Below are positions 1 through 8,576 of a stretch of 8,576 nucleotides of DNA, in pieces. The notes below the pieces were generated by a model. The model was not told the origin of the DNA. It made no database searches and saw only the letters and a program-made list of their open reading frames with translations. The translations under genes were made by a program, and so were the position numbers. Source of the DNA: a virus. Positions within the stretch are counted from its first letter, which is position 1, and each line of letters begins with the position of its first letter. The DNA is taken from the UHGV virus genome UHGV-1373278. One strand, written 5' to 3'.

Positions 1-65
1 CAGTGGATTACGGTCTGTGACCAATGACGGCACCGGTAACGCCAGTTCCCGCCATCCTTACCATT

Positions 66-98
66 GGTGCGCATAATGTACGACTCGTTATGTTGAAA
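66..98 (+). other. dif-like XerC/XerD recombination site (putative prophage attachment junction)
   Basis: GGTGCGCATAA (66-76) is identical to the E. coli dif XerC arm as I recall it. It is followed by an 11-nt central region TGTACGACTCG (77-87), versus 6 nt in chromosomal dif, then TTATGTTGAAA (88-98), which matches the dif XerD arm TTATGTTAAAT at 9 of 11 positions. Confidence 0.5.
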
Positions 99-136
99 AG
101 GCCGCTGCGAAAATCGAATCCCGCAGCGGCCTCTTT
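96..136. terminator. Stem-loop, probable bidirectional rho-independent terminator
   Basis: Perfect 10-bp inverted repeat GGCCGCTGCG (100-109) / CGCAGCGGCC (122-131) with a 12-nt loop. Flanked by AAAA (96-99), which is a U-run on the - strand, and TCTTT (132-136). Lies just downstream of the - strand CDS ending at 163. Confidence 0.5.
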
Positions 137-162
137 AGCATAACGTCATTATGCGAACCATA

Positions 163-963
163 TTATATTATTTTTATTTTTGGAAGCACATCATTCATGA
201 CTTTGACTCTTCCTCCATCCTTCATTTTATAATGATGCCAACTATCTGATTGAGCAATCGCATCATCGTGTATTTCTTTCGATATAGCTAATAAGTCCGT
301 ATTCATCCATGAAAATATACCTTCATCTACAAACTGTTTTGATATCAGCTCATAGTGGCTATTCTTTTTTACCGCAACATACAATGGATATTTTCTTTCG
401 ATATTTTCAGCTAAGCTGTCAAATGATATTATTGAAAAGTCATCCCGTTGTTGGCCTCTAATTAATGAGGTTTTTAATACATTGCCTTCATATTCCGATC
501 TGCGGCCGTGAACTAATACATACTTGAAGTTAAAGGGATTTCTTGCCATATGAGCTGGCTCAATAAAACCTTGTAATGTGTTGTTTTTAAAGTGATTTCT
601 ATTTGATTCCTCATCAATCCATGCTCTCCATGTATTTATCTGCTGTAACGCCATATTAAAATCAGCATGAAAGTCTGTGGATTTATCTTTAAAGTATTTT
701 GAGGATGGTTTTTCTATTTCAACAAGTACCACATTCCAATTGTCTGAACTTTTTGCGAGATATACGAAATCTGGTTTGTAATCACTAGATAATGGTAATT
801 TTCTAAGTACGGTACAAAAATGAATCCCATGATTTTGTTCAAATTCTCTTGGGATGAACATGGTGTTTTCTTCTAAATAATTTTGGTAAACTTGTTCAAC
901 TTCATTTCTATCCAGCAATTGCATATATTCATTTCTTTTCTGAACAGCATCTTGACCATTCAT
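163..963 (-). CDS. Hypothetical protein, 266 aa, with PD-(D/E)xK-like nuclease signature; AT-rich accessory cargo gene
   Basis: Long uninterrupted ORF in visibly AT-rich DNA, where chance ORFs of this length are unlikely. ATG start at 963-961. Motif KPDFVYL followed 13 residues later by a hydrophobic strand and VVLVEIEKP (residues about 64-86) resembles the restriction-endonuclease-like D ... (D/E)xK core. Function not established. Confidence 0.65.
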   Translation of the reverse strand: MNGQDAVQKRNEYMQLLDRNEVEQVYQNYLEENTMFIPREFEQNHGIHFCTVLRKLPLSSDYKPDFVYLAKSSDNWNVVLVEIEKPSSKYFKDKSTDFHADFNMALQQINTWRAWIDEESNRNHFKNNTLQGFIEPAHMARNPFNFKYVLVHGRRSEYEGNVLKTSLIRGQQRDDFSIISFDSLAENIERKYPLYVAVKKNSHYELISKQFVDEGIFSWMNTDLLAISKEIHDDAIAQSDSWHHYKMKDGGRVKVMNDVLPKIKII

Positions 964-1105
964 ATAGTAGTTCCATTTTTAATTAGATTAGCTTAAGCAC
1001 TTTTTGGTGATATCGAATTTTTAGCGTTTAAGGTGGCCGAGAGCACCGCGAAGCGGTTCGGGGTTCAGTGACACCCGAACTTTACCGTGGTTTCCCGCGG
1101 CGGAG

Positions 1106-1528
1106 TTACCAGTAATATGACTTTCTTCTGTGCCACCAATAAAGTAGGCCGTATCCGACGATAAGAATCCCGAAGAACATCAGCGACATTCCCCAGCCAG
1201 TTCCGTACCACGAAACCATATCATCGAAAACTAACCCGCCCATTTCACGAACTCCGGCTGCTTCCTTAAGAATTGGTTTGAATACCGGAATCAGAAGGGC
1301 GATCGCAAGTGGAGCACACCAGCGAACAAGACCAGTTTCCATTTTGATCCCGAAAAAGATCCCCGCACCGACAACAAGCAACCAGACTATCAGGCCAGGC
1401 GCAGTTTCCAGTGCTGTTTGCCATTCAACATCGAAAGTTTTCATTAGCCAGGCAACAACTGCCAGACAGAAAGCAAATACGCCCACGACAACCAGTTCAA
1501 CGCCGCTTGTTTCGTTATTTCTACTCAT
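1106..1528 (-). CDS. Small integral membrane protein (about 140 aa, about 4 predicted TM helices)
   Basis: Start preferred at the ATG at 1528-1526 (MSRNNETSG...), preceded by an AGGA about 8 nt upstream. The ORF-track start at 1675 would overlap the upstream gene and its terminator hairpins. Protein has several long hydrophobic stretches (LVVVGVFAFCLAVVAWL, GLIVWLLVVGAGIFFGI, WCAPLAIALLIPVF, MSLMFFGILIVGYGLLYWW) and a basic C-terminus. Confidence 0.55.
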   Translation of the reverse strand: MSRNNETSGVELVVVGVFAFCLAVVAWLMKTFDVEWQTALETAPGLIVWLLVVGAGIFFGIKMETGLVRWCAPLAIALLIPVFKPILKEAAGVREMGGLVFDDMVSWYGTGWGMSLMFFGILIVGYGLLYWWHRRKSYYW

Positions 1529-1554
1529 CCTTTTGATCCTTTTTCGCTGTTCAA

Positions 1555-1616
1555 AACTCGCACAATAAAGAACGTGCAGTGTAGGTAATACTGCACGTTT
1601 GTACCATTCGTGGTAC
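1555..1616 (-). terminator. Two tandem hairpins downstream of the small regulator gene (- strand terminator candidate)
   Basis: Hairpin 1: GTACCA (1601-1606) / TGGTAC (1611-1616) with loop TTCG. Hairpin 2: 10-bp stem AACGTGCAGT (1571-1580) / ACTGCACGTT (1590-1599) with a 9-nt loop. On the - strand, hairpin 2 is followed by CUUUAUUGUG. Confidence 0.45.
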
Positions 1617-1799
1617 TTAATCCTTTTGTTTGGCAGACATGAGATCTTCTGCTGCATCTTTAGAGTAGTTATCAATCAGATAACCTAAAATCTCTGTCCA
1701 TGTAATTGTTTTTCCTAGTTTTACACTGGCATTTATAGCCAGTCGTTCTAGTTTCATTTTTCTTTCTTCCGTCACGTTATAAGTCGTGCGCTTTGCCAT
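1617..1799 (-). CDS. Small DNA-binding regulator candidate (60 aa, ribbon-helix-helix-like)
   Basis: ATG at 1799-1797. N-terminal pattern KRTTYNVTEERKMKLERLA (beta strand then helix) with a G-K-T helix cap fits an RHH (Arc/CopG-like) fold. Divergent from gII across a repeat-rich intergenic region, the position expected for a phage repressor. Confidence 0.5.
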   Translation of the reverse strand: MAKRTTYNVTEERKMKLERLAINASVKLGKTITWTEILGYLIDNYSKDAAEDLMSAKQKD

Positions 1800-1839
1800 T
1801 TTTTACGCTCGTTCAATGCAATATTTGAAGTGAGTATAC

Positions 1840-1968
1840 ATGCTCATGAACTCATATCATCCAAGCCTCTTGAACTCACTAGCTCACTGGTGTAATGTTA
1901 AAACACTAATGAACTACTGAACTCATGTGTTAGTAAGTCGTCATTTTTGCAATTTTGAGGATTTATTC
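1840..1968 (+). promoter_or_regulatory. gII upstream control region: iterated TGAACT(C/A)(A/C) repeats and a candidate sigma70 promoter; possible (+) origin region
   Basis: Four direct copies of TGAACTCA-like octamers at 1847-1854, 1871-1878, 1911-1918 and 1919-1926. Candidate -35 TTGAAC (1870-1875), 17-nt spacer, -10 TAATGT (1893-1898). GAGG (1957-1960) lies 8 nt before the GTG at 1969. Several short dyad symmetries (TCATGA, TGAGT/ACTCA) at 1830-1855. Confidence 0.4.
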
Positions 1969-3021
1969 GTGATCGATTGGCTTACCGGGATTTTCCCTTG
2001 CACACACAAACCGCTTCCGGCGGGGAGTGTTGTCAGCGTTGATGCTGACGGTGCAATTGAGTGGGAAACCGTTAAGCGACTGACTGTTCGCGGTTCGCAT
2101 GAAGCAACGATGAAAGTACGATCGATAGGATCTAATGGCGAAGGTAAAGCGACACATTTGTACATTGATGGTAATCCTTCCAAGTTTCTGCAGGGGCATT
2201 CTGTTGTTGGGTCGGATGATATACAAGGGCTCATGTTGACGGTCTATGCCAGGATTTTATCCTTATTGAATATTCCTCATGATTTAGCGTCTTATAAAGC
2301 CGTTATGGCAGGTCAGTATAAAATTTCACGTGTTGACATTAATTACATGTATTCATTATCTACGCTGGAAAATGTCAGATCATGGCTTTATGCCGCCGAA
2401 TTTAAAGCTAAAACACGCCATGGTCGCGCATGTGGGAAAGGCGGTACAGTTTATTTAGGTAAAAACTCCCGTCGATGGAGTCTGAAATTTTATTCAAAAT
2501 ATGATGAACACGTTTCTGGTAAAAAAGGGCACCAGATAGCCGAAGAGTTTGTACGAGCCGGGTTACTGGACTGGACGAAAGATAAATTACGTATTGAATT
2601 AACATTAAGAACAACTGAGCTTATTGATTTAAATTTAACGCTTGGCGCTAACTGGAATATGAAAACACCACGTCAATTATTCTCTGAATATGTAGGGAGA
2701 ATAGAAATGAATCAGAATGCTATTTTAAGTGATGAAAAAATAACGAAACTGCCAAGAAAAATACAGTCAACTTATTTACTTTGGAAACAAGGGGCTAACA
2801 TGAAAGAAATGTTACCTCATAACACTTTTTATCGCCATAGAAGAGAATTGCTTTCGTTCGGTATCGATATTAATTTCTATTGTGATTCACCAGACTCTAA
2901 TAACGTTGTTCCGCTAATAAGAACGCTGGAAGCCAAGCCAGCGGAAATCCCCTTATGGATTTATGAGAAAGGTTTTATTTTCGATTACAACCGTATTTCG
3001 CACGCCAGTAGCTGGCATTAA
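1969..3021 (+). CDS. II: Replication initiation protein pII (rolling-circle nickase), Ff gene II homolog
   Basis: No in-frame ATG near the 5' end, so a GTG start is inferred. GTG at 1969 has a GAGG RBS 8 nt upstream and gives MIDWLTG..., like Ff pII MIDMLVL... The alternative GTG at 1927 lacks an RBS. C-terminal region contains NVVPLIR, as in Ff pII (NVVPLVR). First gene in the Ff order. Confidence 0.8.
   Translation: MIDWLTGIFPCTHKPLPAGSVVSVDADGAIEWETVKRLTVRGSHEATMKVRSIGSNGEGKATHLYIDGNPSKFLQGHSVVGSDDIQGLMLTVYARILSLLNIPHDLASYKAVMAGQYKISRVDINYMYSLSTLENVRSWLYAAEFKAKTRHGRACGKGGTVYLGKNSRRWSLKFYSKYDEHVSGKKGHQIAEEFVRAGLLDWTKDKLRIELTLRTTELIDLNLTLGANWNMKTPRQLFSEYVGRIEMNQNAILSDEKITKLPRKIQSTYLLWKQGANMKEMLPHNTFYRHRRELLSFGIDINFYCDSPDSNNVVPLIRTLEAKPAEIPLWIYEKGFIFDYNRISHASSWH
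2707..3021 (+). CDS. X: pX, in-frame internal translation product of gene II (104 aa)
   Basis: In-frame ATG at 2707 preceded by AGGGAGA (2694-2700) with a 6-nt spacer. Product starts MNQNAILSDE, like Ff pX MNIYDDSAVL. An alternative in-frame ATG at about 2660 (MKTPRQ...) is possible. Confidence 0.55.
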   Translation: MNQNAILSDEKITKLPRKIQSTYLLWKQGANMKEMLPHNTFYRHRRELLSFGIDINFYCDSPDSNNVVPLIRTLEAKPAEIPLWIYEKGFIFDYNRISHASSWH

Positions 3022-3032
3022 AGGAAAGTAAT

Positions 3033-3350
3033 ATGTCTAATTATGGTCTTTTCGTTAAGGGTAAAATGTTGGGAGCCCGCCAACGTAATAAAGTTAATGG
3101 TCAGGGCTATTATAATGAAATTGGTATTGGCCTTGAAATACCTGATGGTTTTGGTGGTACAAAGCAGGATCAAATTATTATTCGAGTTTCTCAGGCTCTC
3201 GTTAACGCAGGTCTAATGAACCAGGCGAATGCTTTCATTGGGAAATTAGTTCAAATTCCTGTCTATGTCCGTGCGTGGTCAATGGAGGGTAGGGAAGGTG
3301 TAACTTATAATGTTTCTTCCGATGGTGGCATCGCAGAGATCAAAGGTTAA
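3033..3350 (+). CDS. V: Putative ssDNA-binding protein at the gene V position (105 aa; not recognisably Ff pV-like)
   Basis: ATG at 3033 with AGGA RBS (3022-3025) immediately after the gII stop. Size and position match gene V, but the sequence is Gly-rich and basic and does not match Ff/IKe pV from memory. Confidence 0.6.
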   Translation: MSNYGLFVKGKMLGARQRNKVNGQGYYNEIGIGLEIPDGFGGTKQDQIIIRVSQALVNAGLMNQANAFIGKLVQIPVYVRAWSMEGREGVTYNVSSDGGIAEIKG

Positions 3351-3352
3351 AT

Positions 3353-3439
3353 ATGGACGATGTTATTCAAATTTTGATAGCGTCTGGCATCGTTATTTCT
3401 TTTGGCCTCGGCGCGATTACTGCGGGGGTCTTTCGTTAA
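3353..3439 (+). CDS. VII: Minor coat protein pVII (28 aa)
   Basis: ATG at 3353. Small hydrophobic protein MDDVIQILIASGIVISFGLGAITAGVFR resembles Ff pVII (...ALGIIAGGQR). Stop TAA at 3437-3439 overlaps the next start (TAATG). Confidence 0.6.
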   Translation: MDDVIQILIASGIVISFGLGAITAGVFR

Positions 3440-3534
3440 TGTATATCGTTTATTTCTTCGGGGCTTATACCTTTGGTTTTGCCCTTTTCTATGCGGTCGG
3501 TTCATTTAAATCATTTTCTGACCGATTAATGTAA
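3439..3534 (+). CDS. IX: Minor coat protein pIX (31 aa)
   Basis: ATG at 3439 overlapping the pVII stop. MYIVYFFGAYTFGFALFYAVGSFKSFSDRLM resembles Ff pIX (MSVLVYSFASFVLGWCLRSGITYFTRLMETSS). Confidence 0.6.
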   Translation: MYIVYFFGAYTFGFALFYAVGSFKSFSDRLM

Positions 3535-3553
3535 CCTTAATGGAGTTATTCCT

Positions 3554-3796
3554 ATGAAAATTCTGTCTACTGTTAAATATAAAATTGCTCTGGCTTCAAC
3601 TGCGCTTTTTATTTCTGCAAGTTCTTTTGCGGCTGAAGGCGCTACAGGTGGTACTGATTATGCAGGTCAGGCAATGGATGCTTTGTTGACTCAGGCAAAT
3701 GATCTCATTGGTAAAGTATGGCCTGTTGTTGTTGCTGTGGTTGGCGCTGGGCTTGCCATTCGTATTTTCAAAAAATTCTCTTCAAAAGCGGTTTGA
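3554..3796 (+). CDS. VIII: Major coat protein pVIII precursor (80 aa; mature about 54 aa)
   Basis: GGAG RBS 8 nt upstream. Signal peptide [26 protein letters not shown], then mature AEGATGG... with a hydrophobic core and basic C-terminus [11 protein letters not shown], close to Ff/IKe pVIII (...KLFKKFTSKAS). Confidence 0.9.
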
Positions 3797-3805
3797 ATTT
3801 CACTC

Positions 3806-3830
3806 AGGGGCACTCGTTGCCCCTTTATTA
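3806..3830 (+). terminator. Rho-independent terminator after gene VIII
   Basis: Perfect 7-bp stem AGGGGCA (3806-3812) / TGCCCCT (3818-3824) with loop CTCGT, followed by TTTATT. Same position as the strong terminator after gene VIII in Ff phages. Confidence 0.7.
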
Positions 3831-3842
3831 AAGCGGGTTACT

Positions 3843-5165
3843 ATGAGAAGGAAAATATTAATTCTTTCCGCTGTCCTCATTTCTCCTTTTTCACATGCTG
3901 AGTCATGGGAAAGCATTACTAAATCCACTTATCAAAGTTCTGCCTACGCTGAAAGTAAGCAAATAACCAATCAGGATGGCTCTAAGATAACGGTTTACTA
4001 TATTGATGCTGCTATGCAGGCCTCCGCTTGTCAGGGTGCTAAATCCAGTGCTCAGAGTGTATTTACTCGGATTAAACCAACTTATGAGGGTATCTGGCCT
4101 GATTCTGAATTCCGTCTTGTTTTTACTGGCGATTGTACTTACAGCGATTCACCAGGGCAGAAGGATAAATATTGGTCTTTAACGGCTTATATTGTTGGTA
4201 ATATTCAGCGTTCTGTTCCTGATGAAAAACCTACTGACCCGACACCAGAAGAAATTTGTGAAGCGAAGCCGCCAGAAGAAGGTGTATTTAATAATGTTGA
4301 TTCATATGATGGTGGTCGCTATATCTACTATAACGGCTGTGAATATGAGGCTACTGGTGTCATTGTTTGTCAGGGTGATGGTACTGTTTGCGCTGCAACA
4401 TGGAAGCCTACAGGTGCTGTAGCTGACCCCTCTGATAAACCCTCAACCCCCCAAAATGGTGGTGGTGAGTCTGGCGGTGGTGAGTCCAGCGGTGGTGAGT
4501 CCAGCGGTGGTGAGTCTGGCGGTGGTGAGTCCGGCGGTGGTGAGTCCGGTGGTGGTGAGTCCGGCGGTGGTGAGTCTGGCGGTGGTGAGTCCGGTGGCGG
4601 TAGTTCTGGCGGTAGTTCTGGCGGTGGCTCTAGTGGTTCCAGTCTTTCTAAAGGTGATATTCAGTCTGCGATCGAAGGTGCTTCACCCAAAATAGCCAGC
4701 GATATTCATGATAAATTAACGGAGAAAGACACTTCATCAGATGATAAAAAAAATGCCGATGAACAAACCAGGAATAATATAAATCGTCTTGACGATTCCA
4801 TTAACAATCTTACGCGGGGGGCTGGCCGTTTTGCTGACCCTTCAGGTGGTGATTCTCGTTATGGAAAGGGCGACTCTGAATTAGATGGCGCTTCTACTTT
4901 GGCTGATTCTGAATTGGGAATTGAAAAGGATTCTCACGGTGCTTTATGGGAAGCGTTTTTAAATAAAGGTGCTATGCTGCCTAATTTACCCAATGGTAAC
5001 GGCTGCTCTGATTTTATTATTTTTCCCGGAGAGGTTTATCAGATTGATATTGGTTGCGATAAATTACTGACTATTAAAGATGTTCTTTCATGGGTTTTTT
5101 ATTGCCTTACGTTCTGGTATGTCTTTACTTCTTTAACTTCATTGCTTCGCAAAGGGGGTGAGTGA
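3843..5165 (+). CDS. III: Minor coat / adsorption protein pIII (440 aa)
   Basis: ATG at 3843 with signal peptide [19 protein letters not shown]. Cys motif [25 protein letters not shown] resembles the Ff N1 TolA-binding motif (CLWNATGVVVCTGDETQCYGTWVP). GGGES-repeat linker follows. C-terminal ...[40 protein letters not shown] resembles the Ff pIII C-terminus. The 3699 ORF-track start is an out-of-context upstream extension overlapping gVIII. Confidence 0.9.
4458..4640 (+). repeat. Tandem 15-bp in-frame repeat array encoding the (G-G-E-S-G/S) linker of pIII
   Basis: Nine near-identical 15-bp units GGTGGTGAGTC(T/C)(G/A)GC(G/T) from about 4461 to 4595, then degenerate Gly/Ser codons to about 4640. 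Confidence 0.85.
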
Positions 5166-5506
5166 TGCCTTTATTATTAGGTATTCCTGCATTGTTGCGT
5201 TTTCTTATTGGTCTTGTTCCTTTGTTTATTGGCTATGTGGCGAGTTTTTTAGCTCGACTTGCTACCAGAACAGGATTAATCGCCTTTGCATTGGTCGCAT
5301 TAATTACAACAACTGTTACGCTTTTAATGCAGTACCTTGCTGAGGTCATGTATAACGGTTTACCTGCTGATTTCTCCCATTTAATGGCGTCTGTATTGCC
5401 TGACCATTTTCAGGCGTGTGTTAACGTTATTATGGTTACTCGTATCAGTGTTTTTGTTTTCGATTTAAAACAAAAGTTTCTTGATTATGCAAACAGGGTG
5501 ATTTAA
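5165..5506 (+). CDS. VI: Minor coat protein pVI (113 aa)
   Basis: ATG at 5165 overlapping the gIII stop TGA (ATGA). [24 protein letters not shown]... resembles Ff pVI (MPVLLGIPLLLRFLGFLLVTLFGY...). C-terminal FVFDLKQKF matches Ff FIFDVKQKI. Confidence 0.9.
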   Translation: MPLLLGIPALLRFLIGLVPLFIGYVASFLARLATRTGLIAFALVALITTTVTLLMQYLAEVMYNGLPADFSHLMASVLPDHFQACVNVIMVTRISVFVFDLKQKFLDYANRVI

Positions 5507-6601
5507 ATGGCGGTTTATGTAGTAACAGGCAAATTAGGCTCAGGCAAGACACTTGTTAGTGTTTCCAGAATACAGGAAAGACTTGCTAAGGGTTGTCCTG
5601 TTGCCACTAATCTTGATCTTAAATTGCATAATATGCCTATGGTTGGGCGTTATGCGAAAAAAACGCGCGTTATTCGCATTCCTGACAAGCCTTCATTAAA
5701 TGATTTACTTGCTATTGGTATTGGGAATACATCTTACGATGAATCCCGTAATGGCCTCCTTGTACTTGATGAATGTGGTACTTGGTTTAATTCCCGCTCA
5801 TGGGGTGATAAAGACAGACAACCTGTTATTGACTGGTTTTTACATGCCAGAAAATTAGGCTGGGATATTATATTTTTGATTCAGGATATTTCGATAATGG
5901 ATAAGCAAGCTCGTCTGGCGCTTGCTGAGCATGTTGTTTATTGTCGCCGTTCAGATAAATTAAACATTCCTTTTGTTGGCTCCATTATGAATTTGGTTTC
6001 AGGGGCGAGATTTTCTTTACCAAAGGTACACTTTGGCATTGTCAAATATGGTGATAATGTTAATTCAATCACTGTTGATAAATGGATATATACAGGAAAA
6101 TCTCTTTATTCTGCTTACAATACCAAACAAGCGTTCACAGATAATTATCCTCATGGCGCATTTTCGCTTTTGCCACCATTTATCACGCACGGTCAATTTT
6201 CTGTTCACAGAGGATTTAATTATTATATGCGCCTCACTAAAATTTATTTTCGCAAATCGAACCGTCTTATATTAATGCTTTCTTTTTTGGCGCTGGGGCT
6301 TGCGTTTGGTTTCTGGCTCCAGTCTGGAAAGAATGTTGATGAAATCTCAGCTATTAAATCTGCTTATGCTGAACAGGCGAGGGCGGTAACGCCTGATTCG
6401 TCCAGTAACTTACCCCGACTTTCTATTAATTCTTTTTCACAACTTGGCTTTGACGTTTCCGTTACGTTTGTTGATGCTAAAGGTATGAAATATCAGTATT
6501 TTGATTTGATTAAAGATGGTTATTCCGTTGATATTAAAGATGCCTGTCGTGTTGTTATTAGAAAAGGCCGTTATTTACAGACTGTTACCTGTCAGGAGTA
6601 A
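5507..6601 (+). CDS. I: Assembly ATPase pI (Zot-like, 364 aa)
   Basis: ATG at 5507 immediately after the gVI stop. N-terminus MAVYVVTGKLGSGKTLVSV (Walker A) is nearly identical to Ff pI MAVYFVTGKLGSGKTLVSV. Extensive similarity continues (LLVLDECGTWFN, IIDWFLHARKLGWDIIFL). Confidence 0.9.
   Translation: MAVYVVTGKLGSGKTLVSVSRIQERLAKGCPVATNLDLKLHNMPMVGRYAKKTRVIRIPDKPSLNDLLAIGIGNTSYDESRNGLLVLDECGTWFNSRSWGDKDRQPVIDWFLHARKLGWDIIFLIQDISIMDKQARLALAEHVVYCRRSDKLNIPFVGSIMNLVSGARFSLPKVHFGIVKYGDNVNSITVDKWIYTGKSLYSAYNTKQAFTDNYPHGAFSLLPPFITHGQFSVHRGFNYYMRLTKIYFRKSNRLILMLSFLALGLAFGFWLQSGKNVDEISAIKSAYAEQARAVTPDSSSNLPRLSINSFSQLGFDVSVTFVDAKGMKYQYFDLIKDGYSVDIKDACRVVIRKGRYLQTVTCQE
6227..6601 (+). CDS. XI: pXI, in-frame internal translation product of gene I (124 aa)
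   Basis: In-frame ATG at residue 241 of pI (MRLTKIYFRKSN...), the same position and context as Ff pXI (Met241, MKLTKIYLKKF...), followed by a TM segment. Purine-rich AGAGGA lies about 12 nt upstream. Confidence 0.5.
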   Translation: MRLTKIYFRKSNRLILMLSFLALGLAFGFWLQSGKNVDEISAIKSAYAEQARAVTPDSSSNLPRLSINSFSQLGFDVSVTFVDAKGMKYQYFDLIKDGYSVDIKDACRVVIRKGRYLQTVTCQE

Positions 6602-6608
6602 TATTATT

Positions 6609-7874
6609 ATGCGCTCTGTTATTGTTGCTTTTTTATTTGCCTGTTCATTCTGCGTTTCTGCTGAAACTGTTAATTTAAATAATTCATCTGTTCGCTCATT
6701 TGTTCAGTGGTATTCTTCAAAAACTGGCAAGCCTGTTATTGTTAATCCTGATATTAAAGGAAACGTAACCGTATTTAATGCTGATGTTAATCCAGCAAAT
6801 ATTGATGATTTCTTTAAGTCTGTTCTGAATGCTAACGGTTTTGTCATGCTTTCTGGCAATCCTGCGGTAGTCTCTTTGCCGTCTAAATTACCTTCACAGA
6901 TGGTTTCGGATTCCGATGATTCTGATAACCAGTCTTATGATACTTTTCCTTCTGAGCCATCTTACCAGCCAGTACCTGTGGCGCTTACGGTCAGAAATTT
7001 TAAGCTGACAAAAGTTAGATCGTCCGATGTTCAGCAACTGATTAAAATTTATCTTGATTCTAATGGTGGTGGTAATGTCGTGGATTATCCAGGCAATAAC
7101 TCGCTGATTGTTTCTGCGCCTGACGAGCTGCTGCCGGTTCTGTCCGATTTTATCAATTCTGTGGATGTTGCCCGCGATCAGGTTCTCATTCAGTCGCTGA
7201 TGTTTGAAACCAGCTTGTCTGATGGCGTTGATTTATCGTTTGCGGCAGGTTCTGCATCCGGTCATAAGGTTGCGGGGGGCTTTAATACTTCTGCACTGGG
7301 TAGCGCTCTTTCTACGGCGGGCGGTTCTTTTGGTATTTTTGATGGTAACGTGTTGGCGCTGTCTCTGCGTGCTGTCCAGAGTAATTCACGCTCTAAGGTG
7401 ATTTCAACGCCGCGTATTCTTACTCAGTCTGGTCAGACTGGTTACATTTCCGTAGGTAAGAATGTGCCGTTTATCACCGGAAAGGTAACGGGCGAATCTG
7501 CCGGGGTAAATAATCCGTTTCAGACTATCGAGCGTCATGATGTTGGCGTTTCTCTCAAGGTAACGCCTGTTGTCATGGGTAACGGGCAACTAGTTCTGAC
7601 TATCGACACTCGCGCTGATTCAATCAGCAATGATGATCAGGCATCCGATATTATTACTAATCAGCGCCAGATTCAGACGACAGTCCAGATTAAGGATGGT
7701 CAGACGTTGTTATTGGGGGGGCTTATCGATTCATCGTTCAGCAATGCCGAGCGTTCAGTTCCAGTTATAAGTAAAATTCCTCTTATAGGCTGGATTTTCA
7801 GTAGCAAGGCAGACAGCAATGAACAGCGTATTATGTATATTTTGCTTACAGCACATATCATTCGTCCACTTTGA
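6609..7874 (+). CDS. IV: Outer-membrane secretin pIV (421 aa)
   Basis: ATG at 6609 with AGGAG (6594-6598) about 10 nt upstream. Signal peptide MRSVIVAFLFACSFCVSA. Strong similarity to Ff pIV throughout (VRSFVQWYSS..., NVPFITGKVTGESAGVNNPFQTIERHDVG..., DGQTLLLGGL..., SKIPLIGW-FSS). The 6516 ORF-track start is an upstream extension inside gI. Confidence 0.9.
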   Translation: MRSVIVAFLFACSFCVSAETVNLNNSSVRSFVQWYSSKTGKPVIVNPDIKGNVTVFNADVNPANIDDFFKSVLNANGFVMLSGNPAVVSLPSKLPSQMVSDSDDSDNQSYDTFPSEPSYQPVPVALTVRNFKLTKVRSSDVQQLIKIYLDSNGGGNVVDYPGNNSLIVSAPDELLPVLSDFINSVDVARDQVLIQSLMFETSLSDGVDLSFAAGSASGHKVAGGFNTSALGSALSTAGGSFGIFDGNVLALSLRAVQSNSRSKVISTPRILTQSGQTGYISVGKNVPFITGKVTGESAGVNNPFQTIERHDVGVSLKVTPVVMGNGQLVLTIDTRADSISNDDQASDIITNQRQIQTTVQIKDGQTLLLGGLIDSSFSNAERSVPVISKIPLIGWIFSSKADSNEQRIMYILLTAHIIRPL

Positions 7875-7918
7875 TGGATAGCGGGTAGGTGCGTGAGCCC
7901 TGCTCGCTATCCATCAAA
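7870..7918 (+). other. Large imperfect hairpin overlapping the gIV stop codon (candidate gIV terminator and/or packaging-signal-like hairpin)
   Basis: 14-bp perfect inverted repeat TTTGATGGATAGCG (7870-7883) / CGCTATCCATCAAA (7905-7918) around a 21-nt GC-rich loop that can extend the stem with G-U pairs. No U-run follows. In Ff the post-gIV intergenic region carries a terminator and the packaging hairpin. Confidence 0.4.
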
Positions 7919-7943
7919 TGGACATTATTGATTGGGGTAACTA

Positions 7944-8252
7944 ATGGATTCTTATGGGATTTTATCTGCTCTGGCAGAACGAACGATTACAGCGGAAGAA
8001 GCAAAAACAATGACACTTGCAGCCAGAAGTTCTTCGGCTCAGGTAAATGAAGCATCACTTGCTCTGTTACTGATTGATAATACTCTGGATGCGATCAAAG
8101 CAGCTGCCAGTGAAGGGAAAGGATACACTTTACTTCCTTCTTATGAGATTTCTGTAAAAGCCATTGATTTAGCAGAAGAATTTTTAAGGAAACAATGCGG
8201 CTATGTTATTGATAACCAGAATGGCGTAAGGACGGTCTATTGGTTTATATGA
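7944..8252 (+). CDS. Hypothetical protein (102 aa), accessory ORF downstream of gIV
   Basis: ATG at 7944 with a weak GGGG(T) SD-like element. Ala/Leu-rich, predicted largely helical, no signal peptide. No recognisable homology from memory. Followed by a structured region and a T7 run (8319-8325). Confidence 0.45.
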   Translation: MDSYGILSALAERTITAEEAKTMTLAARSSSAQVNEASLALLLIDNTLDAIKAAASEGKGYTLLPSYEISVKAIDLAEEFLRKQCGYVIDNQNGVRTVYWFI

Positions 8253-8369
8253 TAACCCCGGACAATGACAAAACTTGCTTTTGTTAGTGTCAGGGGTTGG
8301 CCAAGCCGAACAATTCTGTTTTTTTAGCGTTATTGCTGATTCGGCGCGGCAGCATTACGAGGAGATAAA

Positions 8370-8576
8370 ATGCAATTTTTCACATCCAGCGATACTGTAA
8401 TGTTATGTGCGAAGACCTGCGATCGCTGTGGTCGCCATGCGAAGACGGTGGTAGATGACATTGAGTTCAATGAGTTTCTGTCTGTTAATCACTTAGCTGG
8501 ATACGGTTCAATTTTTGGTGACAGTAATCGCTTAAAACTGGATTTATGCCAACATTGCCTGAAAGACGTCCTGGGC
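8370..8576 (+). CDS. Cys-rich (putative zinc-ribbon) hypothetical protein, 5' partial; continues beyond the window
   Basis: ATG at 8370 with strong GAGGAG RBS (8359-8364). Frame open for 69 codons to the window end. Contains C-x3-C-x2-C (CAKTCDRCG) and C-x2-C (CQHC) motifs. Missing from the ORF track because no stop falls in the window. Confidence 0.5.
   Translation, partial: MQFFTSSDTVMLCAKTCDRCGRHAKTVVDDIEFNEFLSVNHLAGYGSIFGDSNRLKLDLCQHCLKDVLG

Follow-up and report, generated by a model that had tools for sequence, protein, structure and literature searches.

The end of the virus genome UHGV-1373278, a stretch of 8,576 nucleotides that was analysed as a whole (hereafter the window), raises the question of what two small open reading frames (ORFs) contribute to an inovirus in which they stand between the secretin gene gIV and the attachment site attP. 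ORF1 (7944–8252, + strand) is a homologue of YPO2280a and ORF2 (from 8370, + strand) a homologue of YPO2281 of the phage Ypf-phi. In Ypf-phi the two were described as attR-adjacent ORFs without predictable function, lying at the position of ctxAB in CTX-phi, and the terminal ORFs of CUS-1 and Ypf-phi were treated as an open question (PMC4266046). Both genes are already on record as hypothetical genes, and their finding here is a re-discovery. New are the completion of ORF2 across the end of the window, the definition of its cassette, the independence of the two genes, and a large unnamed domain family of ORF2 that is tied to antitoxin modules. The original prediction, made from the letters of the window, had described two accessory ORFs downstream of gIV, and both were found there intact; the continuation of ORF2 across the window end, the independence of the modules and the antitoxin-linked family were not foreseen in it.

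The first 69 codons of ORF2 occupy positions 8370–8576 (ATG at 8370, translation MQFF...KDVLG to the window end), preceded, as originally predicted, by a GAGGAG ribosome-binding site (8359–8364, + strand) that is read from the sequence five nucleotides ahead of the start codon. The gene had been thought to run off the window. It does reach the window end, but it is not cut: codons 70–77 and the stop (QWITVCDQ) are found at positions 1–27 (+ strand), where cagtggattacggtctgtgaccaatga is the exact continuation of ORF2 in the prophage of Escherichia coli UM146 (L001:10703–10729). The full product of 77 amino acids is identical to WP_001159442.1, and ORF2 is a whole gene, neither truncated nor a pseudogene through an early stop. 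Since the window start directly continues its last bases in UM146, the stretch represents a single unit, circular or from a tandem array, with the cut inside ORF2, and the gene spans the window end for this reason. The region 7875–8576 is 100% identical to the UM146 prophage and is present at at least 99% identity in 49 of the 5,426 complete E. coli genomes; positions 1106–8576 are 99% identical to the same CUS-1-type prophage. In UM146 the prophage is flanked by hipA on one side and the ydeQRS fimbrial genes on the other, and a perfect dif site lies 38 nt past the ORF2 stop. The phage is a dif-integrating inovirus of the CUS-1/Ypf-phi type, and the window represents a single such unit, circular or tandem.

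Purifying selection acts on both ORF1 and ORF2, which are real and intact genes. Wherever a complete E. coli genome has gIV at 99% identity or more (49 genomes), the ORF1–ORF2 stretch accompanies it at 99% or more, and the ratio of nonsynonymous to synonymous substitution rates (dN/dS) is low for both: 0.06–0.18 for ORF2 against copies at 77–82% nucleotide identity, and 0.14 for ORF1 against its Salmonella homologue (gIV for comparison: 0.10). Two prophage copies in IMG/VR are deletion variants of decaying prophages, one lacking window positions 7564–8053 so that gIV is fused to ORF1 (L062), the other lacking 7014–7557 within gIV (L063); ORF2 is intact in both. Searches of the INPHARED phage collection, by DNA or protein, gave nothing useful.

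The comparison of relatives shows that the two genes do not travel together. A Salmonella phage with gIV 93% identical (L128) has an ORF1 homologue (60% identical) and no ORF2. Two E. coli phages, with gIV 93% identical (L131) and 85% identical by nucleotides (L132), have neither; their slot is occupied by an unrelated basic ORF of 82 amino acids, and these phages come from avian pathogenic and bat E. coli. Three very distant inoviruses lack ORF1 and carry ORF2 directly after gIV: L007 (gIV 28%, ORF2 79% identical), L067 (29% and 64%) and L009 (23% and 56%). Altogether 14 loci have an ORF2 homologue immediately downstream of gIV. Judged by this distribution, ORF1 and ORF2 are independent modules. 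The slot lies between the secretin/Zot module and attP, varies among close relatives with gIV 93% identical and is dispensable in related phages, and corresponds to the ctxAB position (PMC4266046), which bears out the earlier view of the two ORFs as non-core genes in a moron position.

The extent of the ORF2 module can be read from its boundaries. Against both L007 and the plasmid-like contig L002, homology starts at 8254, two bases past the last base of the ORF1 stop (8252), and runs to the ORF2 stop or slightly past it (about window 8–80), with nucleotide identities of 82% to L007 and 77% to L002. Within these limits the cassette comprises a hairpin, a leader in which a 24-nt block is invariant, the strong ribosome-binding site and the gene of 77 codons. 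On the evidence of these alignments ORF2 is a self-contained cassette swapped horizontally among very distant inoviruses, always between gIV and attP, and it is found by the same comparison also on a plasmid-like element.

The spacer between the two ORFs was recovered as had been noted, structured and with a T-run. It holds an inverted repeat forming the 5' hairpin of the cassette (8254–8298, + strand) with 20-nt arms and a 5-nt loop; folding of the spacer as RNA gives z = –4.0, and compensatory changes in relatives affect 3 of the 19 pairs. The T-run (8324–8330) begins 25 nt beyond the stem, and a terminator scan of 7700–8576 was empty, so the hairpin was rejected as a canonical intrinsic terminator. 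The Salmonella phage without ORF2 has both this hairpin, there following ORF1, and the hairpin at the end of gIV; the retention of the former after ORF1 indicates that it behaves as a module junction. The leader block TTGCTGATTCGGCGCGGCAGCATT (8333–8356, + strand) comprises 24 nt with the inverted repeat TGCTG-N11-CAGCA, lies 14–37 nt ahead of the ORF2 start codon and occurs once in the window. It is exact in every copy of the cassette, including those of L002–L005 and L007, where the coding sequence is 71–82% identical; in front of more distant members of the ORF2 family no copy was found. The block is a candidate cis-regulatory element, and an operator, an RNA element or a recombination site may be considered as its role.

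The product of ORF2, an acidic protein of one domain (isoelectric point 5.4), contains the pattern C13-x3-C17-x2-C20 ... C60-x2-C63 with the motif GYGSIFGD between the pairs. The pattern is the one originally described, but its first cysteine is not conserved: among relatives only C17, C20, C60 and C63 are retained, and neither C13 nor C75 is. Of 150 family representatives, all have C20, C60 and C63 and at least 90% have C17, while GYGSxFGD is invariant or nearly so. The description of the product as a Cys4-type protein held, with four conserved cysteines in two CxxC pairs, as expected of a structural Cys4 zinc site of the zinc-ribbon or treble-clef class. The spacing is C-x2-C-x39-C-x2-C, and the protein ends 14 residues past the second pair. 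Residues 1–77 match phrog_5435, a PHROG of unknown function, at 4.5e-46. The structure prediction was poor (predicted local distance difference test, pLDDT, 56), built on an alignment of six sequences. The homologue on the plasmid-like contig (L002 3962–4195, protein P0008, 71% identical) has serine in place of the first ligand (C17S) and is still under purifying selection; H23 might replace Ser17 as a ligand there.

Close relatives of ORF2 are few, and the family is large. When 1.84 billion representatives were searched with a profile, 1,237 proteins (50%-identity clusters) scored E ≤ 1e-3 and 608 of these E ≤ 1e-10; a word-indexed search reached 2,433 clusters at E ≤ 1e-5. In both sets every entry is named hypothetical, and none of the 2,433 has a Pfam domain. 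The members share the signature CxxC...GYGSxFGD...CxxC, and the ORF2 domain itself has no counterpart in Pfam, NCBIfam or the PDB sequences. By these searches the ORF2 family is very large, unnamed and unannotated, and putatively zinc-binding. Its members come from Proteobacteria, Bacteroidota, Desulfobacterota, Chloroflexota, Nitrospirota and others; in IMG/VR 69 contigs have a member, and the settings include tailed phages, plasmids, transposons and chromosomes. No conserved neighbour gene was found at 121 loci of the family. In tailed-phage contigs the gene lies within same-strand runs of small genes, the recognisable neighbours including terminase large subunits, orphan DNA methyltransferases, HNH endonucleases and nucleotide-metabolism genes, and at two loci TniQ adjoins it. 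The domains are acidic, with a median net charge of –4 over 219 domains and about 90% of the members acidic. Some members contain tandem duplications of the domain.

About 7% of the family representatives bear antitoxin modules at their C-terminus. Xre_MbcA_ParS_C was found in 8–9 of the 150 representatives, and others have TacA1, VapB or DUF4926. The ParS/MbcA fusions match only the toxin-binding half of the profile (about positions 45–112 of 112), which places the ORF2-like domain where the helix-turn-helix (HTH) would stand. A RES or GNAT toxin gene was sought beside the fused relatives examined and none was recognisable, several of the contigs being short. The fused relatives with ParS/MbcA or TacA modules (L133, L137, L138, L140 and L135) look like orphan antitoxin-like proteins, and the missing recognisable toxin fits orphan neutralisers. 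One fusion gene (L133, 471–935) starts 6 nt past a canonical ParS-like antitoxin gene. The likeness of the family to the Xre/ParS/MbcA antitoxins of RES-Xre systems thus lies in these 8–9 of 150 relatives, in which the domain is N-terminal to the ParS/MbcA toxin-binding domain. The differences are that the ORF2 domain is acidic and has a predicted Cys4 zinc module instead of the HTH, and that ORF2 itself has neither toxin-binding domain nor toxin neighbour: Pfam and NCBIfam searches found no Xre_MbcA_ParS_C domain in it, attP/dif lies downstream, and ORF1 upstream matches no toxin family.

Profile-profile comparisons and searches of Pfam, NCBIfam and the PDB sequences assigned ORF2 to no named zinc-finger family with significance. 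Zinc fingers of the YgiT/MqsA and ECs_2282 types resemble it in having two CxxC pairs 30–40 residues apart and a helix after the second, and weak NCBIfam matches were found in relatives (ECs_2282_CxxC at 5.5e-4 in 3 of 150, YgiT_finger at 0.004 in 2 of 150). Membership in MqsA/YgiT was rejected, with no match of ORF2 to the NCBIfam model (TIGR03831) and an hhalign probability of 0.8% against an MqsA sequence, as was membership in ECs_2282 (NF047912), with no match and an hhalign probability of 3.4% against the member in UM146. Ogr/Delta and TraR/DksA were also tried and found no support. The Ogr spacing is C-x2-C-x22-C-x4-C versus C-x2-C-x39-C-x2-C in ORF2, and no zf-dskA_traR match was found in Pfam or NCBIfam.

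We tentatively propose, with a confidence that stays clearly on the lower side of even, that ORF2 acts as a zinc-stabilised stand-alone protein-binding accessory factor of a neutraliser or anti-defence/anti-toxin type, and not as an Ogr/TraR-like factor. One structural zinc would be held by the four cysteine ligands, the second pair standing at the start of a helix, and ORF2 alone would bind a host or competitor protein as a stable module. The interaction face may be made up of the conserved glycine-rich loop and the acidic surface. Where relatives are fused, the ORF2-like domain would give the toxin-binding tail a stable scaffold or an oligomerisation unit. Features in favour of protein binding are the acidity of the domain, the lack of a conserved neighbour, and the same-strand neighbours of the tailed-phage members, among them terminase, orphan DNA methyltransferases and HNH endonucleases. 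The anti-defence or host-modulation role suggested from the start for these ORFs may apply.

A number of observations weigh against this proposal. The replacement of the HTH by the ORF2-like domain in antitoxins reads equally well as DNA binding. The CDRCGR knuckle is similar to that of zinc ribbons that bind nucleic acids, with a weak match to zf-FPG_IleRS (0.004, below the cut-off). The palindrome-containing block just upstream of ORF2 is invariant. Zinc binding is read from the motif alone, and the L002 copy carries C17S. PADLOC gave no significant match for ORF1 or ORF2, and a promoter scan of 7700–8576 detected no sigma-70 promoter for either ORF. In Ypf-phi, only YPO2274–2279 are reported to be derepressed when RovA is lost (PMC4266046).

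The first three of these points favour another explanation, doubtful in our view but the main rival, according to which ORF2 is a small zinc-finger DNA-binding autoregulator or transcription factor, an antitoxin-like module for DNA binding and dimerisation. The stand-alone phage protein would then use the conserved leader block to regulate either the cassette that encodes it or genes of the host or phage. The position of the domain at the Xre HTH in ParS/MbcA-type fusions, the CxRCGR-type knuckle and the inverted-repeat block before the start codon, better conserved than the coding sequence, are all consistent with this, and the tandem duplications suggest dimerisation. However, the prevailing negative charge of the domain speaks against contact with DNA, no similarity to known DNA-binding zinc-finger families was found, and no copy of the leader block was found before the genes of more distant members. 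Moreover, a DNA-binding part may already be present in some of the fused relatives: P0134 is fused to an antitoxin module of the TacA1 family, a family that brings its own ribbon-helix-helix DNA-binding part, and proteins of the L022 type appear by eye to carry an HTH-like stretch.

The constant position between gIV and attP/dif, kept in inoviruses with gIV only 23–29% identical, and the presence of both a forked attP-like site and the cassette on the plasmid-like contig L002, could instead point to a contribution of ORF2 to the Xer/dif lifestyle, by handling of the folded single-stranded DNA (ssDNA) attP, by modulation of XerC/XerD, or by stabilising the prophage or its tandem arrays. Xer-activating accessory factors do exist in elements that exploit Xer, for example XafT of TLC-phi. 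Such a role is nevertheless quite unlikely, as most of the family, across many phyla, sits in tailed phages, transposons and chromosomes that offer no dif-like context, and close relatives with gIV 93% identical integrate at dif without ORF2. Also, CTX-type attP requires XerC catalysis only.

Even less probable is that ORF1 and ORF2 form a toxin-antitoxin (addiction) pair stabilising the episome or prophage. In its favour, the two genes are small and adjoin each other on one strand, fusions tie the ORF2 family to antitoxin modules, and Ypf-phi is reported to be unstable as an episome (PMC4266046). The independent distribution of the two genes makes such a pair very improbable, and they are separated by 117 nt with a strong hairpin; ORF2 has no toxin-binding tail, ORF1 matches no toxin family, and no partner gene is conserved over the 121 loci. 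Least credible of all, and a proposal of the original prediction that found no support, is an Ogr/Delta- or TraR/DksA-like zinc-finger factor acting on RNA polymerase: small size, four cysteines and phage context agree with it, and TraR-like proteins are likewise acidic, but neither Ogr_Delta nor zf-dskA_traR was matched up to E = 1, no PDB sequence is related, and the 39-residue spacing of the CxxC pairs with the invariant GYGSxFGD loop between them fits neither family.

ORF1 would be a second, unrelated accessory factor, independent of ORF2. Its product is identical to WP_000378924.1 annotated in E. coli UM146, is acidic (isoelectric point 4.7), and matches phrog_4115, a PHROG of unknown function, over residues 1–102 at 2e-68. 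The length of 102 amino acids was predicted exactly, but the protein is helical only in part: the AlphaFold2 model, of moderate quality (pLDDT 72, predicted template modelling score 0.64), is mixed alpha/beta, with helices at residues 3–11, 17–28, 36–56 and 71–85 and short strands at 61–63, 88–92 and 95–99. Fold searches gave weak and mixed matches, and in BFVD the model retrieved only uncharacterised phage proteins, above E = 6e-3. No match was found in the Pfam, NCBIfam or PADLOC families, and no toxin family among these or the PHROGs. Conservation is strong over the C-terminal two thirds of the protein, and its N-terminal third varies. Homologues form only 10 clusters, confined to the CUS-1/Ypf-phi lineage and the Salmonella relative. 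The synonymous divergence from the Salmonella copy is far higher in ORF1 (1.8) than in gIV (0.38), which indicates mosaic acquisition.

The rest of the window shows a complete inovirus gene set in the ORF map: gII (1927–3021), gV (3033–3350), the major coat gene (3554–3796) followed by gIII and gVI, the Zot-like gI (5507–6601), and the secretin gene gIV (6609–7874, stop codon 7872–7874). A hairpin with 20-nt arms and a 9-nt loop straddles the gIV stop (7870–7918, + strand). Its ssDNA fold has –23 kcal/mol (z = –7.5), 8 of its 23 pairs are preserved through compensatory double changes among the window, the Salmonella phage and the two E. coli phages without ORF2, and the apical GGTGCGT is conserved. 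In Ff phages a packaging-signal/terminator hairpin follows gIV, and by its position the hairpin of the window is probably the equivalent of this hairpin A. The interior of gIII (~4456–4695) encodes a Gly/Ser-rich linker of GGGES repeats in the attachment protein, and BLAST alignments to all related prophages are interrupted at 4506–4585, which suggests copy-number variation of the repeat. The listed ORF of 189 amino acids at 1106–1675 (– strand) matches two PHROGs, phrog_6875 with residues 7–55 and phrog_4174 with residues 50–189; at the equivalent place in UM146 only a hydrophobic protein of 140 amino acids is annotated, and the true start is probably internal.

The attachment site, according to a half-site scan and the sequence, is of the CTX type (66–159) and begins 38 nt downstream of the ORF2 stop. 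It consists of two inverted dif-like sites (66–98, + strand, and 127–159, – strand) flanking a GC-rich hairpin. The + strand site reads GGTGCGCATAA-TGTACGACTCG-TTATGTTGAAA and the inverted site on the – strand contains GGTTCGCATAA. The plasmid-like contig L002 has the same forked arrangement (2851–2950, 84% identical) about 0.9 kb upstream of its ORF2 cassette. Paired inverted XerC/XerD sites are known from Ypf-phi (PMC4266046).

Across attP, the left side forms a second cargo slot. In the window it carries a Shedu gene (163–963, – strand) encoding SduA of 266 amino acids (PADLOC PDLC00378, 5e-111; Pfam SduA_C, 2.4e-25), an anti-phage defence gene aboard a filamentous phage. The left slot of UM146/CUS-1 holds two unrelated genes, one of them the ECs_2282 zinc-binding protein. 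The Shedu version is absent from the 5,426 complete E. coli genomes, none of which covers more than 52% of window 100–1900. Part of this region matches 779 E. coli genomes at 90–99% identity, 407 of the matching places being on plasmids, and these left-arm matches imply a widespread short repeated or mobile segment.

Set against known systems, ORF1 and ORF2 occupy the same slot as YPO2280a/YPO2281 of Ypf-phi and their homologues in CUS-1 of E. coli O18:K1:H7, with the secretin gene upstream and attR/dif adjacent. In ORF1 and ORF2 the window does not differ from CUS-1/Ypf-phi; only the left cargo slot differs, by Shedu. CUS-1 and Ypf-phi are 99% identical across a 7.1-kb segment that includes these ORFs (PMC4266046). 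The slot resembles that of ctxAB in CTX-phi as an exchangeable attP-proximal cargo site of a dif-integrating inovirus with a forked ssDNA attP. Unlike the cargo of CTX-phi, ORF1 and ORF2 are unrelated to cholera toxin and have no signal peptides or toxin domains.

The question of the terminal ORFs has thus gained handles, namely a defined domain with conserved residues that can be mutated, a candidate cis element, and natural phage variants with and without the genes, and the ORF2 domain family deserves curation. CUS-1 and Ypf-phi have been associated with a modest gain in fitness or virulence in invasive E. coli K1 and pandemic Y. pestis, and ORF1 or ORF2 could underlie this modest in-host effect. 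A broader proposal, which we consider rather unlikely as it stands, is that the whole ORF2 family, which counts 2,400 clusters or more and extends over phages, plasmids, Tn7-like elements and chromosomes, consists of neutralisers of toxin-antitoxin or abortive-infection effectors, or of some other conserved host target. If this were true, the family would constitute a new class of mobile-element counter-defence or "orphan antitoxin" modules, stand-alone or bearing a tail, and the in-host fitness effect of CUS-1 and Ypf-phi would be owed in part to the ORF2 they carry beside attP.

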